Shown piece by piece: positions 19,449-29,134 of a stretch of 64,000 nt of DNA (positions are counted from its first letter, which is position 1; each line of letters starts with the position of its first letter). The notes under the pieces are model-generated. The model did no database searches, had not been told where the DNA came from, and saw only the letters and a program-made list of their open reading frames with translations. The stretch comes from an uncultured Clostridia bacterium (GTDB taxonomy: Bacteria; Acidobacteriota; Blastocatellia; UBA7656), in the NCBI GenBank assembly GCA_964548075.1, contig CAZJQQ010000005.1, positions 64,252-128,251 on the forward strand. The letters run 5' to 3'. The translations under genes and the position numbers were made by a program.

Positions 19449-20430
19449 GGACCTGAGGATTTCGGTCACCGACAGGTGCAACTATCGCTGCACATACTGC
19501 ATGCCTCTGGAGGAGTATGTGTGGATCGATCGGAGCGAGATCCTCAGCTTCGAAGAGATCGCCCGCCTGGCGCATCTGTTCGCCGGGCTTGGGGTCGAGA
19601 AGATTCGAATCACCGGCGGCGAGCCTCTGGTGCGCAAAGACCTGCACCGGCTCGTCGGGATGCTGTCTGGCATCGAGGGCGTGCACGACCTCTGCCTCAC
19701 AACAAACGCTTCCCTGTTGGCCGAACAGATCGACGAGCTCGTGGCAGCCGGACTCAAGCGCGTCAACGTGAGCGTCGACACGCTTGTTCCCGAAAAGTTC
19801 AAGCAGATAACCAAGCGCGGTGATCTGGACAGAGTCCTCGAAGGGCTCTTCGCCGCAAAAGCGCTCGGGCTTCACCCGATCAAGATCAACGCCGTGATCG
19901 AGCGAGGCTTGAACGACGACGACATCATCCCGCTGGTCGAGTTCGCCCGCCAGCACGGCTTCTCGATGCGGTTCATCGAGTACATGGACGTGGGCAACGC
20001 GAACAATTGGATCTCAGAGAAGATAGTCTCGAAGAAAGAGATTCTTGAAAGAATTAACGCTCGTTATCCGCTGAGAGAAGTCGGGCGAGACAACGGCACC
20101 GCCCCGGCAGTTGATTACGAATTCACGGACGGCATCGGCGATGTTGGAGTAATCGCATCAGTGACGGAACCCTTCTGCGGAACCTGCACCCGCGCCCGCC
20201 TGACGGCGGATGGAAAACTGGTGACCTGTCTGTTCTCAAATCACGGCCACGACTTGAAGTCGCTGATCCGGACCGGCGCCACCGACGAACAACTCGTTGA
20301 GGTGATAAGTTCGGTCTGGAGCAAGCGGACCGACCGCTACTCCGACGAACGCTTCGCCGCGATGAATTCCCCCGAGGGCTATCAGCCAAAGGCTCATCAC
20401 AAGATCGAGATGATAACGTTAGGAGGATAG
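19417..20430 (+). CDS. moaA: GTP 3',8-cyclase MoaA (radical SAM)
   Basis: CNYRCTYCMP radical-SAM motif, C-terminal MoaA cysteine cluster CGTCTRARLTADGKLVTC, and GG C-terminus; start chosen at MLRDAYNRPIKDLRISVTD. Confidence 0.9.
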   Translation: MLRDAYNRPIKDLRISVTDRCNYRCTYCMPLEEYVWIDRSEILSFEEIARLAHLFAGLGVEKIRITGGEPLVRKDLHRLVGMLSGIEGVHDLCLTTNASLLAEQIDELVAAGLKRVNVSVDTLVPEKFKQITKRGDLDRVLEGLFAAKALGLHPIKINAVIERGLNDDDIIPLVEFARQHGFSMRFIEYMDVGNANNWISEKIVSKKEILERINARYPLREVGRDNGTAPAVDYEFTDGIGDVGVIASVTEPFCGTCTRARLTADGKLVTCLFSNHGHDLKSLIRTGATDEQLVEVISSVWSKRTDRYSDERFAAMNSPEGYQPKAHHKIEMITLGG

Positions 20431-20512
20431 CGAAAGTAATCGCGGTTTGCGATCGCGCGGATATCGGGACGGACACTCAGACGCATCGCTTGAATTGCCC
20501 AGTCCGCTTTGA

Positions 20513-21337
20513 TTACCGCCGGGGGGGCGTTGAGATCACTCGAAAATGGTATTTGCCGGCCTCTTCGAATTGCCCGCCCTGGTCTAACCCGCTGAGCTTG
20601 ATTTGGTAATCGCCCCTGACAAGTAGCCTGGCGCGGAAACTCAAGCCGACCACCCGTTCATTTGCCAGTGATTCGGGTTTCAGCTCATCCGCCGAGAAGA
20701 CTTCGCGCCCTTCATCCGTTTGAACGACTGCCCGGTAGCTCTGATACTCGTCTCGCGACAATTCAAGGTGTAGCCGCACAGTGGATATGTCGGTTGCAAT
20801 TGTTACCCTCTTGATTTCGCCGCTATCCCTCTCCAGGCCGGGCCTCAAAGTAATCGCAAGCGTAGGCCCTTCCGGCAATTGATCGCGCAGCCATACATTC
20901 CTGACGATCAGCCATGAGGCGCCGAAGAAGACAATTACTAATGCTGCCGCAAGGGAAAGGCCAAGCAGCGGCTTTTGAGCGTGGAGCGAAGCGGGTATGA
21001 AGCGCTTCCAGACGAGAGGTCGCTGGCCGTTGACTGTTGCGGGCTTTACGTCTGCGAGCGGCGCACCGTTGACGTATCTGTGTAGGGCTTCGGCAAAGCT
21101 CAGCCGCTGTCTTCGCTCCGAAACCGCCAGAAAATGTTGATTGAATCTCTCTCGCTCAGGAGCGGACAAGTTGCCGTGAACATAGCTGTCTATTAACTCG
21201 TCCTCTGCAGCTGACAATTCCTCAAGGTACTCGTCATCAATCAGCAGTTGCTTTTCCAGGCGCTCCTGTTCCTCCGGCTCAAGCCACCCCAGCAGGTACC
21301 GCCTCAAACGGTCTTCAGTATCATGGCCATATTCCAT
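20513..21337 (-). CDS. single-pass membrane protein with anti-sigma-factor-like topology
   Basis: 274 aa: an about 110-aa cytoplasmic helical acidic N-domain (LRRYLLGWLEPEEQERLEKQLLIDDEYLEEL...), one TM (LLGLSLAAALVIVFFGASWLIV), and an about 135-aa extracytoplasmic domain. Lies downstream of the ECF-peptidase-CHAT genes. Confidence 0.35.
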   Translation of the reverse strand: MEYGHDTEDRLRRYLLGWLEPEEQERLEKQLLIDDEYLEELSAAEDELIDSYVHGNLSAPERERFNQHFLAVSERRQRLSFAEALHRYVNGAPLADVKPATVNGQRPLVWKRFIPASLHAQKPLLGLSLAAALVIVFFGASWLIVRNVWLRDQLPEGPTLAITLRPGLERDSGEIKRVTIATDISTVRLHLELSRDEYQSYRAVVQTDEGREVFSADELKPESLANERVVGLSFRARLLVRGDYQIKLSGLDQGGQFEEAGKYHFRVISTPPRR

Positions 21338-21553
21338 TAGAAGGACTCTTCCCCACTCGCCTTTGCATCCCTATACATGTATTGCATAGTCTTCAGTTCT
21401 ATTTCAGGCAGTCGATATTGGTCAAGGCAATCTCGCGCGGATCGTATGCAGTCAGAGCCGTTCTATTCCCTCTACCTCCGGCATTTTAATGCCTGAAGCT
21501 GTCAGAGTCTCTTAAGCTAAGTTCCAGGTCTCAGCGCTCCGCAGTTTGCCGGG

Positions 21554-24500
21554 TTAAGCCGCGCGTTGCTTCTTGATCAGGACCCGTCTTGCTGCAAAAA
21601 GACTGACTATCAATATGGCGGTGAATGCCGCGGCCAGTATTGCCAGATAATACTCGCCTCTTTGCGGGCTTTGGCCGGCGTCGATTTCTCCCTTGTACTC
21701 ACCCTGCAAAACAAAAGGCGCCCAGAAATAGGGCGATTGCCACCGCTTCTGTCCCCACATGGTTATCTGCGCCTGGCGGAGCGCTTCTGCTGGAGACTTC
21801 TTCTCAGCAAGCATTTCCTGGTAGAAATGTTTTATCAACTCGGCCGTGGCCTCGTCATCAACCTTCCACAGGCTGGCCATTACGCGCGCCGCGCCTGCAT
21901 ACATGAATCCGCGAGTAAGCCCTATCAGACCTTCGCCTTTGATCGGCTTGCCTAGAGCTGAGTTACAAGCACTGAGCACGACCAAATCGGCCGGAAGATC
22001 TAAGTTGTATATGTCGTTCAGCCGCAGGAACCCATCTTGTGGCTGGCCATCCTTGTCGAATAGGGATAGCACCAGACCGGATAGCTCCGGGGTGTCATTG
22101 TCAAGAATTCCATGGGTAGCGAAATGAATGATGCGGTACCGGCTCAATTCGGGGCCGGTAGCAAGGCCCTTATTGGCCTCGAAGCCGATCGCCTTCAGGC
22201 TCAGCTTGCCGGGCGTTACAGCCATGATCGCGTTCGCCTCATCCCGTGAAGCAAACAAGCGCGGAATGCCTCGGCCGTCGCCCGCAACGCCAACATCGCG
22301 CAAGGCCCGGTGTGCGTCCGCACGGTTCTGCTCATCGGAGTCCTTAGCAATCGTCTCCTTTGCCGCACTCAGGCGCGAATCATCCCTTTCAAAGACCGGA
22401 TCAGCAAACACGGCCAACATGTTTGAAGCAGGCTGACGGCTTTCAATCTTGTTGCGCAATGTCGCCAGCGTCGAGGCAGATGGTTGGTAAGTAACCTGAT
22501 GATCGACCATCAGGGGAACCCGACTATCGTCCGTCGATTGGGGATCCGGCAGGGCGCCGAAAGGTATGTATTGCAACGCGCCGTCAGCGACGACTATCAA
22601 CTGCTTATTTTCGAGTTGCGCGGCGGCCGGGCCAAGTAAAATTTTGCTCAGCGAGGATGCGCTTTGCCAGTACTTCGTCTCAGATTCGTTGAGTCGCGTC
22701 TGGCGTTGTTCAAAGGACTCCCCCTCCACGAACCGGGGGGTAGTTAGCCTGTCCCGCACCTGATTGGCTAAAGCTTCTACCTCCGCGCGGCGTGGGAGCT
22801 CATAACTGGCAATCTCCGATTTAGTCACCGCCCAAAGATAGCTTCTCTCTTCACCCAGTGAATACTCCAGAAGGAGCGCGTTGTCATCCAGGGCTTGCTG
22901 TTGAATTTCTTGCAAGCTCAAGGTGTGTAGTTGCGTCAGCGCGGCATATTGCGGGCTCTTTGATTTGATCTGCCTTTCTACCTCATCGCAGTTTGTCGTG
23001 ATCTCCTGAATCTCTCTAGCCAGAGCTGCCGCGTCTTCTTTATTGTATTGACCGGAGAGCAAACGCATCTGACGTTCGGTTTTACCCTGGAGCGTTCGTT
23101 GGAGCGAGCGCTTGCGTTGCAGCAGCGCCGGATCTACTCCTTGAGAAATGTCAGCGTGAGCTTCCTCCAACATATCCAGCAGCGCTCTTGCCCTCGCTCG
23201 CTCGCTTGTGTCAAGAGCGAGGATATCGAATCCATGGCTTGGGCTGTCTTTGTGCAGTCTCATTAACAAATCGATATACAGTTCGTAATACTGGTGCGCG
23301 GTGGCGAAGTATGTGACCCGCAGATCCCGGCTGGCGACTTTCGTGCGCAGAGATTCTGCAATCGTGACAGCCTCCTCGATCCGCGCGCGTGCTTCTTTGA
23401 GATCGCCCAGGTCGCGCTGGACGCGCGCGATGTTGTAAAGCGTTGAGGACTCACCCGACGGATCAGCCGCTACACGGTTAAGCGGTAGCGCCCGTCTATA
23501 GTAATCGAGCGCCCTTTTCTTTTCGCCCGAACCTTCATAGAGCTTGCCCATGTAGTTGAGTGTGTAAGCCTCATAGCGCTGATCCTGTCCGGCGCGCCCG
23601 AGGTTTAGCGATTGCTTGTAGCAGGCAAGTGCTTCGGCATTGTCGCCTAGGGAGGCATAAATCAGCCCCATGTCGCGAAGGGTCTTTGCCTCTTGGCGCG
23701 GCATTCTAAGGGTGCGGAACAAAGAAAGGGCTGATTGACAATGGTTGAGCGCTACCTGACTCTCTCCTAGTGAATAGTGTGTTTCGCCAATGACCCTCTC
23801 CGCCTCTGCTTCTCCCCATCGGTCATTGGTCTCTTTGAAGAGGCTTATTGCCTGATCATAGTATTTGATCGCCGTGCGCTTCTCACCGACACCATCATAG
23901 ATAGAGCCGAGCCCGCCAAGCACAGTCGCTTTCAGTTTACGAGCATCGATCGATTGCAGAATCTCTAACGCCTTAAGGAACAGATCGAGTGCCTGCTGCT
24001 TCTCGCCTAATTTGGTTTGTAGATTTCCAAGAGCCCTAAGTGCAATAGCCTCGCCATGACGATCATGTGCATCACGGCTCATAGCTAGCGCCCGCTCATA
24101 CGAATCGAGTGCTTTAGCAACGTCGCTTAACTCTATGTACGTATAGCCAAAGCTGACCAGCACCCTGATCTCTCCCTGGCGATCATTCGACTTCTGATAA
24201 AGCTGCATCGCTTCTCGCAAATACCAAAGCGCTTTCTGTAAGTCGCCGAACCCGTAGTAGGCCTCGCCGATGGTATGGAGCGCCGGCGCTTCTCCCGCAA
24301 CGTTGTTCGTGAACCGACTTAATTTCAAAGCGAGGGTGGCAGCTCTTAGGGCCTTCTGGCTATCCCCGAAATCGAAATGAAGATACCCGATGTCATTAAG
24401 AACATCTACCTCTCCACGCCTGTCATTCAGTTTTTGGCTGAGTGAAAGAGCTTGGTTGTAAAAGGTGAGGGCTTTCTGATACTCATCTAACGACTGATAG

Positions 24501-25207
24501 ACTCGTCCTAGACCTCTGAGCATGTAAGCTTCTGCGTGGCGGTCTCTCGCAGCCCGGAAGTAGCCTTGTGCCTTTTCATACATCTGGATGGCTTTATAGT
24601 TTGATTCCGTTCTCCATTCGGCCCTCAATCGCTCACCTTCTGCAAAGGCATTTTCACCAAGAATGGTTTCCCGGTCTCGTGTACTCGCCCGCCTGAGGGC
24701 TTCGAGCGTAACTCGGTAGTGTCCTTTAATTGTCCCCTCTTTCCGCGCGCTCACCTCTAACCGATACTCCCCAGAGACATCAGCAATGACGGATACAGGT
24801 ATCAGTCCGCCCGGATAGCAATTGAATTCAACGTGTTTCTGACGGCTCGGATAATAGAGGGCCACGCTGGCCTCTATTCCCCAGCATTCAATGACCGCAC
24901 GCCCGTACTGGCCTGAGGTCAAAGTGATTTGATAAGAGTGAGTCTGACTCGGCGAGATTTCCCGCTCGATAACCTTGTGCAGCCCGATAAAGGGAGCGTT
25001 GCTCGCTGCATCTACCAACCGACTTGACCCTGCCTTCGAAGGGGCAATCCCTCGCGGCACGACTACCCCGAGGCCAGCAGGAGACACAGCCGATATCCGA
25101 CCGAGCACCAATAGAGCCAGGGCGAACAAAGAAAGGTGTCGAGACAGACCCCTAGTAAGCAAGGGCCCCGTCATCATGAAGCCCCAAGATCTAAAGCGTT
25201 TTTTCAC
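21554..25207 (-). CDS. TPR-repeat CHAT-domain (caspase-like clan CD) protease, membrane anchored
   Basis: 1217 aa with a signal peptide, a PPC-like beta-sandwich, about 12 TPR units, a coiled coil, and a CHAT domain (His in RIIHFATHG, Cys in VVLSACNSALG). C-terminal TM YLAILAAAFTAILIVSLFAARRVLIKK. GTG start overlaps the upstream ORF by 4 nt. Confidence 0.85.
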   Translation of the reverse strand: MKKRFRSWGFMMTGPLLTRGLSRHLSLFALALLVLGRISAVSPAGLGVVVPRGIAPSKAGSSRLVDAASNAPFIGLHKVIEREISPSQTHSYQITLTSGQYGRAVIECWGIEASVALYYPSRQKHVEFNCYPGGLIPVSVIADVSGEYRLEVSARKEGTIKGHYRVTLEALRRASTRDRETILGENAFAEGERLRAEWRTESNYKAIQMYEKAQGYFRAARDRHAEAYMLRGLGRVYQSLDEYQKALTFYNQALSLSQKLNDRRGEVDVLNDIGYLHFDFGDSQKALRAATLALKLSRFTNNVAGEAPALHTIGEAYYGFGDLQKALWYLREAMQLYQKSNDRQGEIRVLVSFGYTYIELSDVAKALDSYERALAMSRDAHDRHGEAIALRALGNLQTKLGEKQQALDLFLKALEILQSIDARKLKATVLGGLGSIYDGVGEKRTAIKYYDQAISLFKETNDRWGEAEAERVIGETHYSLGESQVALNHCQSALSLFRTLRMPRQEAKTLRDMGLIYASLGDNAEALACYKQSLNLGRAGQDQRYEAYTLNYMGKLYEGSGEKKRALDYYRRALPLNRVAADPSGESSTLYNIARVQRDLGDLKEARARIEEAVTIAESLRTKVASRDLRVTYFATAHQYYELYIDLLMRLHKDSPSHGFDILALDTSERARARALLDMLEEAHADISQGVDPALLQRKRSLQRTLQGKTERQMRLLSGQYNKEDAAALAREIQEITTNCDEVERQIKSKSPQYAALTQLHTLSLQEIQQQALDDNALLLEYSLGEERSYLWAVTKSEIASYELPRRAEVEALANQVRDRLTTPRFVEGESFEQRQTRLNESETKYWQSASSLSKILLGPAAAQLENKQLIVVADGALQYIPFGALPDPQSTDDSRVPLMVDHQVTYQPSASTLATLRNKIESRQPASNMLAVFADPVFERDDSRLSAAKETIAKDSDEQNRADAHRALRDVGVAGDGRGIPRLFASRDEANAIMAVTPGKLSLKAIGFEANKGLATGPELSRYRIIHFATHGILDNDTPELSGLVLSLFDKDGQPQDGFLRLNDIYNLDLPADLVVLSACNSALGKPIKGEGLIGLTRGFMYAGAARVMASLWKVDDEATAELIKHFYQEMLAEKKSPAEALRQAQITMWGQKRWQSPYFWAPFVLQGEYKGEIDAGQSPQRGEYYLAILAAAFTAILIVSLFAARRVLIKKQRAA

Positions 25208-25386
25208 AACACGCGCTTTGTAGGGCGGCCCTTAACGCCACGGCAATATTGAGCGAGCACCGTCACGTCTTCGGTCGAGCCAACCCGTTTCATCTCTTTG
25301 AGGTCGGTAAAGCCGTTGTAGTCGAGACCGGCATCGCCGACCATGTATACCATCACCGTCCAAGATCTCTTGTCCACGGGATTCAA
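25204..25386 (-). CDS. 60-aa ORF homologous to the N-terminus of the adjacent C11 peptidase (duplicated fragment; possible gene remnant or small regulator)
   Basis: RSWTVMVYMVGDAGLDYNGFTDLKEMKRVGSTEDVTVLAQY aligns with ADWTVMVYLAGDNNLTDECTYSLTEMKKADSGNRVNIFAQF of the upstream gene. It lacks the catalytic His/Cys and overlaps both neighbours by 4 nt. Confidence 0.4.
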   Translation of the reverse strand: MNPVDKRSWTVMVYMVGDAGLDYNGFTDLKEMKRVGSTEDVTVLAQYCRGVKGRPTKRVL

Positions 25387-26936
25387 GCCTTCCTCGCCGG
25401 AGCTGCCTTCAAGAACAATTTCTCCAACCCTCTAATTACATCTTCCTTCCTCTTTATACAATCATCTGGGAACGCCACGATTGGCGGGTTCCTCATGCTC
25501 TGGACAGGGTTCCCCCCCCTGTCATCAACCTTCCTATCATCAACCTTCCTAAATGTTCTTGCGCCGTTCGGGGTGTTGGTCCCATCTGACGCTCTAAATG
25601 ATCCTTTGCCGGGTGACCTTCCAGCTAAGAGTGCGGTGGCTGCAGCGTTGATAGCGCTAAGACGCTTGGATCCTACCGCGTCAACGGTGCGATCTTGTTT
25701 CCCATTTTCAGATTGCCTGCGCGGCAGACGCGGTTCTCGGCGCGTTTCTTTCGTATAGATCTCAAGGAACTTCGCCCACCCTGAGTCTTTAGCAAAATTG
25801 AGGTTCCCGTAACCTGGAGTGACCTCGGCCCACGGAAAATAGATCGAGACGCCATGGGAATACTGAAAAGCCGGACCGCTGTAGCATGACTTTAGAACGA
25901 AATGCGACTCAATAAACTCCATAACCTTACGGCACGCGTAAGGAACGCCCCCGGCGTCGTAGCGTTCTTGCAAACAGTCACAGAAATCGTAGAGATCAAC
26001 GAACATTTCGCCGTTATACGATTGAGCTTCCCAGTGCGCCAGCACGATAGCATCCTTGAACCTGTCCTTTGTCTTAGCGTCGGTTAGTTCTGCGCTAAGC
26101 GCCCCGGCTAGGTTCTTGACGCGGTTCTTCAGTTTCCTAGCGTCGCGCAGGTTCATCGCCGATGAGTCCGCTGACAAACCGCCCAATGAGTAGTCCGAAT
26201 AAAAATTAACGAACTCTTCGACGATAGCAGTCGCCAACCTCGACTGTACGCTCTGTCCCCGTGCGAGACTCTGAACCTGCGGGGTTGCCTTGGAGAGTTC
26301 GCCTAATCTGTCAAAAATCTGGCGGTAAGGCCAGCCAGCGGCGGGACTGTAACTTTCGCAGCCCACGAGGATCTGGACGTAGTCCCCAAGTTCGTAACAT
26401 ATCTCAGCCATGCTCATCAGGCATACGTCCATTCCGACAATGTCGATCACCAACCCATTCCCGTCTTTGCCATTGTGGTCTTTGTGCACTCTCTCAAAAA
26501 CCTCCTTCAATTTAAGAATCGTGAGAGAGCCGCCCGAACTCTCATCTTTCAACAAGAAGTTCCTTTCGATTCCGCCACCGTGTCCCGCTAGAACTACCAT
26601 ATAGTGATCCGCCGGACATTCGCCGATGCAGAACTTGATAAAGTTAATTAGCGTCTCCGGATCGCCCGTGTCGGTATCAGGGGACGAACCGATGATGTCC
26701 ACCGCCAAGCTTCCGGATTCACCATCTTTCGCGATCTTGTAGCGCTGAGTTGGGATAAGGGGGTCCTTAGGATCGAACTGCGCAAAGATGTTGACGCGAT
26801 TGCCAGAGTCAGCCTTCTTCATTTCAGTAAGGGAATAGGTGCATTCATCTGTAAGGTTGTTGTCCCCGGCAAGGTAAACCATTACCGTCCAATCAGCGTT
26901 CGCTGTTGATGCAGTTGAATTCCGAATCTTTGCCAT
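25383..26936 (-). CDS. clostripain-like cysteine peptidase (family C11, clan CD), cytoplasmic
   Basis: WTVMVYLAGDNNL N-terminal strand, catalytic His in VVLAGHGGG and Cys in GMDVCLMS (His-Gly / D-x-C-L-M dyad). No signal peptide; basic, disordered C-terminal tail containing a KVDDRKVDDR tandem repeat. Confidence 0.75.
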   Translation of the reverse strand: MAKIRNSTASTANADWTVMVYLAGDNNLTDECTYSLTEMKKADSGNRVNIFAQFDPKDPLIPTQRYKIAKDGESGSLAVDIIGSSPDTDTGDPETLINFIKFCIGECPADHYMVVLAGHGGGIERNFLLKDESSGGSLTILKLKEVFERVHKDHNGKDGNGLVIDIVGMDVCLMSMAEICYELGDYVQILVGCESYSPAAGWPYRQIFDRLGELSKATPQVQSLARGQSVQSRLATAIVEEFVNFYSDYSLGGLSADSSAMNLRDARKLKNRVKNLAGALSAELTDAKTKDRFKDAIVLAHWEAQSYNGEMFVDLYDFCDCLQERYDAGGVPYACRKVMEFIESHFVLKSCYSGPAFQYSHGVSIYFPWAEVTPGYGNLNFAKDSGWAKFLEIYTKETRREPRLPRRQSENGKQDRTVDAVGSKRLSAINAAATALLAGRSPGKGSFRASDGTNTPNGARTFRKVDDRKVDDRGGNPVQSMRNPPIVAFPDDCIKRKEDVIRGLEKLFLKAAPARKA

Positions 26937-27051
26937 CTTAAGTTCTCCTATCCCTTAGCCAATATCCGCGTGATCCCATCGTGCGAGTACATCTACCCGA
27001 TCCCATATCTATACTTCTCTCAACTGACATGGGAGTTCTCTACAATACGTT

Positions 27052-27609
27052 TCACCCAACAGGTGCCTGATTCAGGCAGCTCTCAACGCACAATTGCAAG
27101 CTCGCTCTTATTCGGTGCATACGTATCCTCAACGCATTCGGCGCTATCCCGAGCCGATCAGCAAGCTCCCTTCTGTGATCTATCTTCACTCGTTTCTCTT
27201 CCTGGTAATACTCCAAAACCAACTGCCGATTCTCAGCCGGGAGCCTGTCCATGCATACCTCCAGGCATTCGTACTCTCGTTCCTTCTGTTGAGGGGTGTC
27301 AGGCGCTGGCGTGGGGAGCGGCGGAGGACCCTTCTTCACGTGCTCGAGGTGAACGTTACGCGCCACGCCGTAAAAATAAAGCGCCGGATCGCCGATGTAT
27401 GAATCCGCCAGCTCTTGCATCTTCCTGATGACCCGGTTGATCGTCTCATCTGCGAGCTCTTCGCTTACAGAGCACCCGCGGCAGGCGAAGATCCTTATGA
27501 GCCTTCGGCGAATATCTTCGTACTTCTTTCCGGCTAGCTCGCGGTCAGGGTCGAGCCACCTGAGAAAATTGTCGAAGGCATCCTGAGTAATGTCCCACGG
27601 TCTCTTCAT
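27052..27609 (-). CDS. ECF-type RNA polymerase sigma factor (sigma-70 regions 2 and 4)
   Basis: Internal start MKRPWDITQDAFDNFLRWL...; region 2 (ADETINRVIRKMQEL...YFYGVARNVHLEH) and region 4 HTH (RQLVLEYYQEEKRVKIDHRRELADRLGIAPNALRIRMHRIR). The N-terminal 139 codons of the track ORF lie in the divergent intergenic region and look non-coding. Confidence 0.75.
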   Translation of the reverse strand: MKRPWDITQDAFDNFLRWLDPDRELAGKKYEDIRRRLIRIFACRGCSVSEELADETINRVIRKMQELADSYIGDPALYFYGVARNVHLEHVKKGPPPLPTPAPDTPQQKEREYECLEVCMDRLPAENRQLVLEYYQEEKRVKIDHRRELADRLGIAPNALRIRMHRIRASLQLCVESCLNQAPVG

Positions 27610-27961
27610 CGAATTGCCAGCCGTTCGAGTTTTTGCTTGGTAAACCGCCTGAATGTGGCAGGGAGTTTGGTCCTGCCTAAGCCCAGCGACTTTCGCCGAG
27701 AGGTCACTCAACACAACCTGGTCGCGGCTGAATGTATCACGACCCACCGGCCACGGCAAAACCTTTTTTGTAGCATATACCCTAGCCCTGAGCTTCGCCC
27801 GAGGAGGGAGAATGTGCAATCCGGTTTGCCACGGTGTATGGCGCTTTACCGACAATCTGCGCAACAGGAATCTGACCGACCAAAGCGAAAGCGCCAGTTT
27901 CCCATCTCGCTTGCTTGGGGTACTCTTCTTGAAACCAACCAAACTCAAGGGGGACCGTTCA

Positions 27962-29134
27962 GTGGCGAAGACTATTGGCATCTTGACTGGAGGCGGCGAT
28001 GTCCCGGGCTTGAATCCCTGTATCAAAGCCGTCGTCTACCGCGCGATCGATGAGGGCTACGAAGTGCTCGGCATTCGCCGCGGTTGGGGCGGCTTGCTGC
28101 ACTTTAACCCTTTGGAGCCCGAGAGCTTCTCGAAGCATTTCATGCCCCTGGACAAGCAAGCGGTTCGCACCATCGATCGCACCGGCGGAACGATCTTGCA
28201 TACCAGCCGCACTAATCCTTCAAGAGTGAAGCTAAAGGACGAGCCCGACTTCCTGCGAGACCCCGCGCACCCCAAGGCCGAAGAAGCAGACCCGCGACCC
28301 CGGGACTTCACACCTCACGTGCTGAAAAACCTCGAAGACCTCGGCATCGAGATACTCGTCCCGATCGGCGGCGACGACACACTCAGCTACGGCGAGCGTC
28401 TCCATCGCGAAGGAGTCGAAGTCATCGCCATACCGAAGACAATGGACAACGACGTGTTCGGCACCGACTATTGCGTCGGCTTCAGCACGGCGGTCACTCG
28501 AAGCGTGCAGTTCATTCATCAGCTTCGAACCAGCAGCGGCTCGCACGAGCGCATCGCAGTCGTCGAGTTGTTCGGACGCAACAGCGGCGAAACCAGCTTG
28601 ATCAGCTCTTACCTGGCGGGAGTCGATCGCGCGCTGATTTCTGAAGTGCCGTTCGATCCTGAACGGCTGGCAGAGCTGGTGATGCAGGATAAGCGAACCA
28701 ACCCGAGCAACTACGCGATGGTGACCATCAGCGAAGGCGCGCACATGGTAGGCGGCAAAGTGATCGAGTACGGCGAGGCTGATGCCTACGGCCATCGCAA
28801 GCTCGGCGGCATCGGCTTGATAGTAGGCGAAGCGCTCAAGAAGCTTACTGGCGAAGACATCGTTTATCAGCAGATCGCTTATTTGATGCGCTCGGGAGCG
28901 CCGGACGCGGTCGATCTGATGGTGTCGGTGAACTACGCGCACATGGCGATGGACCTGATCCTCGAAGGCGTGAGCGGGCGCATGTGTGCGTTGCGAGAAG
29001 GAACCTACACGCACGTTCCTATCAGCACGATCACCAGCGGCTTGAAGCGAGTCGACGTTGACGAGCTCTATGACGCCGAACAGTATCTGCCCAAGGTTCG
29101 AAGGGTGCTGGGCAAGCCGATGTTCCTGTACTGA
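27962..29134 (+). CDS. pfp: pyrophosphate-dependent 6-phosphofructokinase
   Basis: GTG start after RBS aagggggac; motifs [24 protein letters not shown] (Asp in the GGDG position) and PKTMDNDV (Lys) favour PPi-dependence. Confidence 0.8.

Follow-up and report, generated by a model that had tools for sequence, protein, structure and literature searches.

Classical anti-sigma factor proteolysis is represented by RseA, which is processed by DegS, RseP, and ClpXP, and by the cell-surface signaling (CSS) anti-sigma factors, which are processed by Prc and RseP. Another design is found in the DdvS/DdvA pair of Myxococcus xanthus, where the anti-sigma factor DdvA is fused to a periplasmic tetratricopeptide repeat (TPR)-CHAT region (PMC11506125). 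Its authors propose a signal-induced cleavage of the juxtamembrane linker by CHAT followed by RseP, and RseP-dependent degradation was shown once the TPR-CHAT part had been removed (PMC11506125). DdvA is described as the only characterized anti-sigma factor with a TPR-CHAT domain, and DdvA-like fusions were found by its authors in Myxococcota and one Comamonas only (PMC11506125). Here we analyze a module of five open reading frames (ORFs), all on the minus strand, in a 64,000-nt stretch of contig CAZJQQ010000005.1 (assembly GCA_964548075.1); the window refers to this whole stretch. The module encodes a sigma factor of the extracytoplasmic function (ECF) type, a C11 peptidase, a 60-residue ORF, a TPR-CHAT protein, and an anti-sigma factor, and it looks like a split and much more widespread version of DdvA. 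A sequence-only reading of this DNA had suggested that such a pairing was undescribed. No description of a C11, TPR-CHAT, and ECF/anti-sigma module was found in the literature searched, and to that extent the suggestion stands; the association of an ECF/anti-sigma pair with TPR-CHAT has precedents in DdvA (PMC11506125) and in the gene context of ECF54 (PMC8999054).

Other described systems share parts of this arrangement. In the type III-E Craspase, Cas7-11 with the TPR-CHAT protein Csx29 cleaves Csx30, which holds an RpoE-like sigma factor (PMC10028731). The resemblance is that a TPR-CHAT protease frees a sigma factor by cutting its binding partner, as would happen in our module, whereas Craspase is cytoplasmic, RNA-guided, and CRISPR-associated. 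The NCBIfam Csx29 model reached 0.0025 and 16.7 bits here against a cut-off of 300, and the type III-E sigma model reached 2e-4 and 21 bits against a cut-off of 100. The III-B system of Haliangium ochraceum (SAVED-CHAT acting on PCaspase, with PCc-sigma and PCi) resembles the module in having two clan-CD proteases, one of them CHAT, a sigma factor, and a small partner; both of its proteases are cytoplasmic, and CHAT cleaves and activates a C14 caspase (bioRxiv 10.1101/2023.06.23.546230). In contrast, the second protease here is a C11 peptidase predicted to reside in another compartment than CHAT, and there is no SAVED or Peptidase_C14 match (Pfam), no cyclic-oligoadenylate signaling, and no CRISPR. 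For the actinobacterial group ECF54, the gene context includes carboxypeptidase, subtilase, and CHAT proteins (PMC8999054). The ECF-CHAT link of this group is likewise predicted from its gene neighbors, but ECF54 lacks an anti-sigma factor, whereas the acidobacterial module includes a cognate one.

The module was recognized by its domain identities, intact catalytic residues, conserved linkage, and co-diversification. The TPR-CHAT protein is encoded at 21554-25207 (1217 residues, GTG start; features of the window are on the minus strand unless the plus strand is given). It matches Pfam CHAT (PF12770) with E 2e-69 and 234 bits and TPR_12 with E 5e-55 and 184 bits. The His/Cys dyad claimed from the sequence is intact, with H1032 (22112-22114) and C1081 (21965-21967) kept in 40 of 42 homologs. 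The protein starts with a basic stretch and a hydrophobic, signal-like segment (residues 25-43), followed by an N-terminal conserved domain that is common across the family (about residues 60-195), the TPR array (about residues 196-640, 23288-24622), the CHAT domain (residues 849-1170, 21698-22663), and a transmembrane helix (residues 1188-1206, 21590-21646) that precedes the sequence RRVLIKKQR. Most of the 44 homologs compared have the same signal-like start and a C-terminal transmembrane helix followed by basic residues, typically RRRR; eight of them have the start without the C-terminal helix. The positive-inside rule applied to these terminal segments places the TPR and CHAT domains outside the cytoplasmic membrane, and the protein is predicted to be a periplasmic, C-tail-anchored protease. 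A single-sequence search of the PDB with the CHAT domain returned nothing significant. Neither DdvA nor any CHAT structure was retrieved from PDB sequences by the CHAT-domain profile at E <= 1, which sets this domain apart from that of DdvA, and the full-length profile was swamped by TPR matches.

The product of 20513-21337 (274 residues) has the single-pass anti-sigma topology that had been ascribed to it. The AlphaFold2 model (pLDDT 81) contains a cytoplasmic helical domain without a zinc motif (residues 1-90, 21068-21337) with five confident helices between residues 3 and 89, a basic disordered linker (residues 95-122), a transmembrane helix (residues 123-151, 20885-20971), and a periplasmic immunoglobulin (Ig)-like beta-sandwich (residues 159-269, 20531-20863). 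The single sequence matches zf-HC2 at 0.005 and, below threshold, NCBIfam anti-sigma models at 1e-4, and at the family level 27 of 37 members match zf-HC2 (best 3e-7). A motif of the protein weakly matches RslA (3hug_B), an anti-sigma factor, and some homologs are labeled RsiW by JGI. The window protein contains no Cys, the family alignment has none in its consensus or conserved columns, and no zinc-binding Cys/His motif is present in the aligned family. Structure searches with the C-domain matched generic Ig, FN3, and CopC folds only. Homology between this periplasmic domain and the N-terminal domain of TPR-CHAT was considered and rejected, as only the transmembrane helices align. The family is large, with 4865 representatives (50%-identity clusters) at E <= 1e-30.

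The sigma factor gene lies at 27052-27609 (185 residues). Its start codon, the ATG at 27609, is also where the family alignment starts; one gene caller extends the gene to 231 residues. The single sequence matches Pfam Sigma70_r4_2 at 3e-5 and TIGR02937 at 3e-9, both under the curated cut-offs, and its best NCBIfam match, TIGR02989, scores 48.8 bits versus a cut-off of 124.6. A single-sequence PDB search returned nothing significant. The profile of 36 family members aligns to Rhodobacter sphaeroides RpoE (2q1z) over residues 10-166 with E 1e-6, and Pfam r4_2 and r2 are matched by 24 and 6 of the 36 members, respectively. On these profile matches the protein is classed as a divergent ECF (group 4) sigma factor. 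The ECF and anti-sigma calls are weaker for the single sequences and solid at the family level, with the sigma-binding role of the anti-sigma domain a prediction. Four Cys are conserved in the ECF family, in CLExC (residues ~116-119) and CVxxC (~170-174) motifs that flank region 4. They could form a metal or redox site, which would be unusual for an ECF sigma factor paired with an anti-sigma factor.

The C11 peptidase (25383-26936, 517 residues) matches Pfam Peptidase_C11 (PF03415) with E 2e-34 and 119.9 bits versus a cut-off of 25.8. The AlphaFold2 core is confident over residues 14-400, and its top Foldseek matches are 9cip, 6mzo, and 6n9j (clostripain and Bacteroidales/PmC11-like C11 structures) with E ~1e-16. 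Its proposed His/Cys dyad is intact: H119 (26580-26582), C172 (26421-26423), and D170 (26427-26429) are invariant in 33 homologs, and the dyad aligns with the HGGG and D-A-C motifs of clostripain (9cip). The C11 and TPR-CHAT assignments made from the sequence are therefore upheld by profile and intact dyads and, for C11, also by fold. D170 stands at the position of the S1 Asp of clostripain and PmC11, and the retention of an Asp there predicts cleavage after Arg or Lys. The fold, the dyad, and the Asp two residues before the Cys are common to this enzyme and to clostripain, PmC11, fragipain, thetapain, and iotapain. To our knowledge, all characterized C11 peptidases are secreted or lipoproteins. 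This clade differs in having no export signal, a disordered repeat tail with a C-terminal [RK]NPP motif, and an almost constant linkage to a TPR-CHAT gene in the genome survey described below. Neither a signal peptide nor a transmembrane segment was detected in the window protein or in 44 module-linked homologs, and just six in-frame codons precede the ATG, which leaves no room for a signal peptide. The enzyme is thus predicted to be cytoplasmic, in agreement with the initial proposal.

Residues 406-486 of C11 are disordered. The Arg/Asp-rich tail carries KVDDR pentapeptides (25518-25551) encoded by a 15-nt tandem repeat in 2.3 copies. Homologs have RMxxD repeats in varying number, and several are called 'pentapeptide MXKDX repeat protein' by JGI. 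The repeats are followed by a conserved [SK][MV][RK]NPP..F..C motif, which reads SMRNPP in the window (25482-25499). The AlphaFold2 model, in which this region is disordered, gives no support either way for the tail as a pseudo-substrate in its own active site.

These topologies place the two catalytic domains on opposite sides of the membrane, since TPR-CHAT is predicted to be periplasmic and C11 has no export signal. The membrane is predicted to be spanned by the anti-sigma factor alone, apart from the CHAT tail in the proteins that have one. Direct activation of one protease by the other is topologically unlikely because of the different predicted compartments, which argues against that form of the cascade that the sequence-only reading had envisaged. 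Coupling of C11 to the basic cytoplasmic tail of TPR-CHAT was rejected as a general mechanism, because the C-terminal helix is missing from eight CHAT homologs whose genes adjoin a C11 gene.

The 60-residue ORF (25204-25386, TTG start) between C11 and TPR-CHAT is 40% identical to the C11 N-terminus and lacks the catalytic residues. Over 53 residues, 68% identity links it to the N-terminus of a second, intact C11 of 407 residues in locus L031, which lies between the long C11 and TPR-CHAT, the position that the 60-residue ORF occupies in the window. This match in sequence and position identifies the ORF as what is left, after truncation, of a second, short C11 paralog. In L043, the closest relative recovered, no C11 fragment lies between C11 and TPR-CHAT, and the gap is ~15 nt. 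The ORF had been described as a C11 N-terminal fragment, which is correct; it is a pseudogene relic and not a small protein with a function.

Gene neighborhoods were surveyed by a C11-anchored scan of one genome per species (80 loci) in which six-frame ORFs were searched with the window proteins. The four-gene set of C11, TPR-CHAT, ECF, and anti-sigma recurs in ~40 independent Acidobacteriota genome loci in at least four arrangements. A TPR-CHAT gene directly follows almost every acidobacterial C11 of this clade, and ECF and anti-sigma genes accompany the two where the contig extends far enough. The usual order is C11-CHAT-ECF-anti-sigma on one strand, with median gaps of 58, 64, and 56 nt (estimated start codons). 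ECF lies directly upstream of the anti-sigma gene in ~30 loci, and the 56-nt median for this pair comes from 28 modules. Variants are ECF-anti-sigma-C11-CHAT (L037) and C11-CHAT followed by an inverted anti-sigma-ECF pair (seven loci). The window order is ECF-C11-CHAT-anti-sigma: unlike in most relatives, the ECF gene is displaced to upstream of C11, and C11-CHAT separates it from the anti-sigma gene. L043, a Blastocatellia metagenome-assembled genome, has C11-CHAT-anti-sigma with no ECF between CHAT and anti-sigma and its own ECF off the contig, which is consistent with the window order. More distant C11 genes (Chloroflexota, Nitrospirota, and Proteobacteria) were without these partners in the survey. 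Two modules occur on one contig in five loci (L009, L011, L016, L024, and L025); those of L024 are 27-42% identical in every component.

The four proteins also diversify together. Their pairwise-identity matrices from 34 complete modules correlate with r 0.70-0.89, and 0 of 999 permutations reached the observed value. The highest correlation is between C11 and CHAT, and CHAT and anti-sigma correlate with r 0.81. The five ORFs, with their 115-bp ECF-to-C11 gap and 216-bp TPR-CHAT-to-anti-sigma gap, were found as they had been called. Both 4-nt overlaps exist; the second (60-residue ORF/TPR-CHAT) reads GTGA as reported, and the first (C11/60-residue ORF) reads TTGA rather than ATGA. The two gaps and the unusual ECF position in the window are all that speaks for a chance juxtaposition of unrelated genes. 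Against it stand the ~40 genome loci and many metagenome loci, the several rearranged orders, and the co-diversification of all four proteins. Chance is excluded for practical purposes by this recurrence and co-diversification, its probability being negligible, and the strongly positive survey in relatives bears out the earlier view that the genes form a true module.

The reading that we favor, to which we assign an even chance, is a transmembrane ECF/anti-sigma switch with a separately encoded periplasmic TPR-CHAT as its dedicated protease, a split DdvA design. At rest, the cytoplasmic helical domain of the anti-sigma factor would hold the sigma factor at the membrane. TPR-CHAT would be exported and tethered by its C-terminal helix, and its TPR array, together with the N-terminal domain where present, would sense an extracytoplasmic cue, probably a protein. 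The activated His/Cys dyad would then make the site-1 cut in the periplasmic part of the anti-sigma factor, in the juxtamembrane linker or the Ig-like domain; we infer this step because an analogous mechanism is proposed for DdvA. Intramembrane and cytoplasmic proteolysis would follow, freeing the sigma factor to redirect transcription. C11 is an accessory restricted to certain lineages, and TPR-CHAT is the partner with which it co-evolves most tightly. Candidate roles for it are to finish the cytoplasmic anti-sigma fragment by cutting the disordered basic linker (residues 95-122), or to serve as a proteolytic output of the pathway.

The comparison with DdvA frames this proposal. Both systems pair an ECF sigma factor with a single-pass anti-sigma factor that holds it, presumably so in the module, and both have a TPR-CHAT with an intact dyad, which for the module is predicted to lie on the periplasmic side. 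Site-1 cleavage followed by intramembrane proteolysis is expected in both. The module differs in that the anti-sigma factor and TPR-CHAT are two polypeptides, separate in all loci examined, and TPR-CHAT has its own predicted signal peptide and C-terminal anchor. The cytoplasmic domain of the anti-sigma factor lacks the CHCC zinc site, its periplasmic part is a small Ig-like domain, and the module adds a cytoplasmic C11 and has no CRISPR or cyclic oligonucleotide-based antiphage signaling system (CBASS) context. Classical regulated intramembrane proteolysis likewise has a single-pass anti-sigma factor, a periplasmic site-1 protease, and subsequent membrane and cytoplasmic proteolysis. The site-1 candidate here is a clan CD cysteine protease with a TPR sensor from the same operon, whereas the classical enzyme is a serine protease encoded elsewhere, and a dedicated cytoplasmic cysteine peptidase is co-encoded in the module.

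A CHAT-anchored metagenome scan recovered at least 589 confirmed relatives; the gene-context counts that follow are among the matches listed. ECF and anti-sigma genes lie directly downstream of CHAT in 26 of the 51 genes with enough downstream sequence. Thirty-five CHAT genes have both flanks: 13 stand alone, 12 have ECF and anti-sigma, 8 have C11, ECF, and anti-sigma, and 2 have C11. C11 accompanies ~30% of the CHAT-anchored loci. On long contigs anchored on the anti-sigma gene, TPR-CHAT and a short sigma-like gene adjoin in four of four and C11 in one of four. TPR-CHAT is therefore the hub of these loci, and ECF/anti-sigma is its commonest partner. C11 is not a core part, with triads lacking it commoner than those that have it (12 versus 8). 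The slot upstream of CHAT can hold C11 or one of several other proteins, yet this C11 clade depends on CHAT.

In five C11-less triads, TPR-CHAT is adjoined by a small CHAT-domain protein that lacks a signal peptide and exceeds the Pfam gathering threshold for CHAT. It is upstream of TPR-CHAT on the same strand in four loci (L146:1314-2120, L155:8618-9328, L133:8516-9211, and L115:233-1507) and divergent in the fifth (L108:2791-3510, minus strand). Four of these proteins have ~230-270 residues, and the L115 reading frame has 425. As the small CHAT adjoins TPR-CHAT where C11 is absent, the place of C11 is taken by a second clan-CD protease. Pairing with a cytoplasmic clan-CD protease may thus be a repeated feature of TPR-CHAT. 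In other loci a large protein precedes TPR-CHAT, either X659 (L165:10446-12425 and L004:12164-14170) or X544 (L164:1554-3188 and L150:7694-9412), neither of which has a Pfam or NCBIfam match. Small ORFs of ~140 residues accompany some of these genes (L165:12456-12863 and L164:3201-3629). The slot upstream of CHAT thus behaves like a variable cassette.

These data bear on a rival in which the proteases are the regulated output. The ECF/anti-sigma pair would sense another envelope or nutrient cue and drive expression of C11 and TPR-CHAT, which would then act as the response, for instance by processing or turning over cytoplasmic and periplasmic proteins. ECF operons commonly carry target genes adjacent. 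Regulators and targets are also hard to tell apart in ECF gene contexts (Casas-Pastor et al., PMC7826278). The changing occupants of the upstream slot (C11, small CHAT, X659, and X544) and the CHAT genes without ECF/anti-sigma, 13 of 35 alone and 2 of 35 with C11, fit the same idea. However, wherever CHAT proteins with long TPR arrays have been studied (separase, Craspase, and DdvA; PMC11506125), they are regulated proteases with specific substrates, and CHAT co-diversifies strongly with the anti-sigma factor. The periplasmic domain of the anti-sigma factor is a bare Ig-like sandwich with no recognizable ligand-binding or enzymatic feature, which makes the TPR protein the more plausible sensor. 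The lack of an ECF-type promoter upstream of C11 also counts against the rival, which we regard as possible but unlikely.

The same inventory, together with other results, also weighs against the split DdvA design. The occupancy of the upstream slot is no less consistent with an output or effector than with a pathway component. The switch can do without C11, since 12 of the 35 CHAT genes have ECF and anti-sigma without it, and CHAT must have sigma-independent roles too, because 13 of the 35 have no ECF or anti-sigma gene nearby. A shared ECF-type promoter (5-mer, 15-18 nt, 4-mer) was not found upstream of 56 operons; only a sigma-70-like TTGACA-N17-TAAC, seen in closely related loci, exceeded the shuffled sequences. 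Structure searches with the anti-sigma factor returned only matches to its C-terminal domain, the beta-sandwich dominating the results, and gave the fold of its N-domain no match to a solved anti-sigma domain. The topology of TPR-CHAT was derived from hydropathy and charge rules. In DdvA itself the CHAT step is a hypothesis, and dyad mutants had no phenotype under the conditions tested (PMC11506125). For the module, we infer every cleavage event, the signal, and the regulon.

The promoter results include the upstream region of the window operon. A search for an ECF-type promoter upstream of 26936 had been suggested, and a consensus scan of the window gave nothing above expectation. The ECF/C11 spacer (26937-27051, 115 bp) contains neither a recognizable promoter nor a recognizable terminator. 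In Pyrinomonadaceae relatives, the C11 gene has a sigma-70-like promoter (TTGACA-N17-TAAST) in front of it, together with a leader of ~165 nt that is conserved (L001:8530-8750, L004:3565-3785, L006:9804-10024, L013:9804-10024, L017:9768-9988, L040:9804-10024, and about seven more loci). This leader type is absent from 26937-27051 of the window. It contains an invariant TCCTTAC..CC box and the element GACCCCAGGTTCTGA..TCAGTTCCRCTCCCAWTGGAGG just before the ATG, in which CUCC can pair with the GGAG of the ribosome-binding site. It has no Rfam match and little covariation; Rfam searches of the window and of six related loci were likewise without a match. The leader may be cis-regulatory. Together with its promoter, it would mean that the operon is not simply ECF-autoregulated in those Pyrinomonadaceae genomes.

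A role in anti-phage defense or abortive infection, as had also been raised, would have a phage-derived periplasmic protein trigger TPR-CHAT, the sigma factor induce defense genes, and C11 act as a PCaspase-like cytoplasmic executioner of broad specificity. Other systems and the gene set itself lend this some appeal: DdvA/DdvS controls a CBASS-CRISPR island (PMC11506125), Craspase and SAVED-CHAT/PCaspase link CHAT, sigma factors, and death or dormancy (PMC10028731; bioRxiv 10.1101/2023.06.23.546230), and a variable gene beside a conserved core is typical of defense systems. The genomic context points elsewhere. PADLOC 2.0 gave no match for ECF, C11, or anti-sigma, and for TPR-CHAT only two generic TPR models and a marginal C3a156 (E 0.008). 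The window neighbors are housekeeping genes (MoaA, molybdopterin oxidoreductase, TetR, DinB, phosphofructokinase, and a sodium:solute symporter), and neither a CRISPR array (no tandem array) nor a cas-like context is present in the window. In Pyrinomonadaceae the module has a stable position in synteny, beside uvrC and genes for sugar kinases, which indicates vertical inheritance rather than a mobile island. Two modules on one contig are usual for ECF signaling paralogs. The context is that of a chromosomal signaling paralog, not a defense island, and the defense role is very unlikely.

Several observations concern the surroundings of the module. The G+C content is 0.53-0.55 over 20001-28000 of the window and 0.58-0.59 in the flanks. 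The phosphofructokinase ORF (27653-29134, plus strand), mechanically called as 493 residues, overlaps the upstream region of the divergent ECF gene. Its true start is probably near 27959, because the Pfam PFK match lies wholly inside the sub-ORF that starts there, and this would leave ~350 bp of intergenic space for divergent promoters. Clustering of flanking genes recovered lineage synteny only (uvrC, kinases, and a lipoprotein) and no fifth universal gene. The lipoprotein-like gene, which encodes ~210 residues with a lipobox followed by a Ser-rich linker, is the one immediately before the module promoter in 17 syntenic loci (L001:7765-8445, L021:5616-6317, and 15 others). Its presence there may reflect synteny alone, or it may encode a further envelope component; no window ORF was placed in this family by the clustering. 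At the Pyrinomonadaceae site of one metagenome contig (uvrC, two conserved genes, and the lipoprotein), ECF-anti-sigma stands without C11-CHAT in front (L165:7382-8831), and a second CHAT module lies 4 kb downstream. The protease pair seems to have been lost or relocated naturally here.

Two further possibilities were considered alongside the split DdvA design. Mechanisms outside those named here are, taken together, unlikely. A trans-envelope relay, in which periplasmic TPR-CHAT and cytoplasmic C11 act on the same anti-sigma factor from opposite membrane faces, is improbable. In sister systems, the small cytoplasmic CHAT would stand in for C11. If the relay were true, an extracytoplasmic protein cue would set off a clan-CD pair encoded by the module, which would replace the usual DegS, RseP, and ClpXP chain in part or in full, and C11 might have wider cytoplasmic substrates as well. 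It would be a widespread non-CRISPR bacterial pathway in which caspase-superfamily proteases signal across the membrane.

The split DdvA design would place the logic of DdvA in separate genes in Acidobacteriota and on a much larger scale, with an anti-sigma family of thousands of soil-metagenome clusters. Because a split system lets the protease and its presumed substrate be handled separately, the idea of CHAT as a site-1 protease becomes directly testable. The locus also defines a C11 clade that is predicted to be cytoplasmic and is tied to a signaling module. The recurring pairing of cytoplasmic and periplasmic clan-CD proteases raises the question of what caspase-like proteolysis does in free-living soil bacteria outside CRISPR/CBASS immunity.

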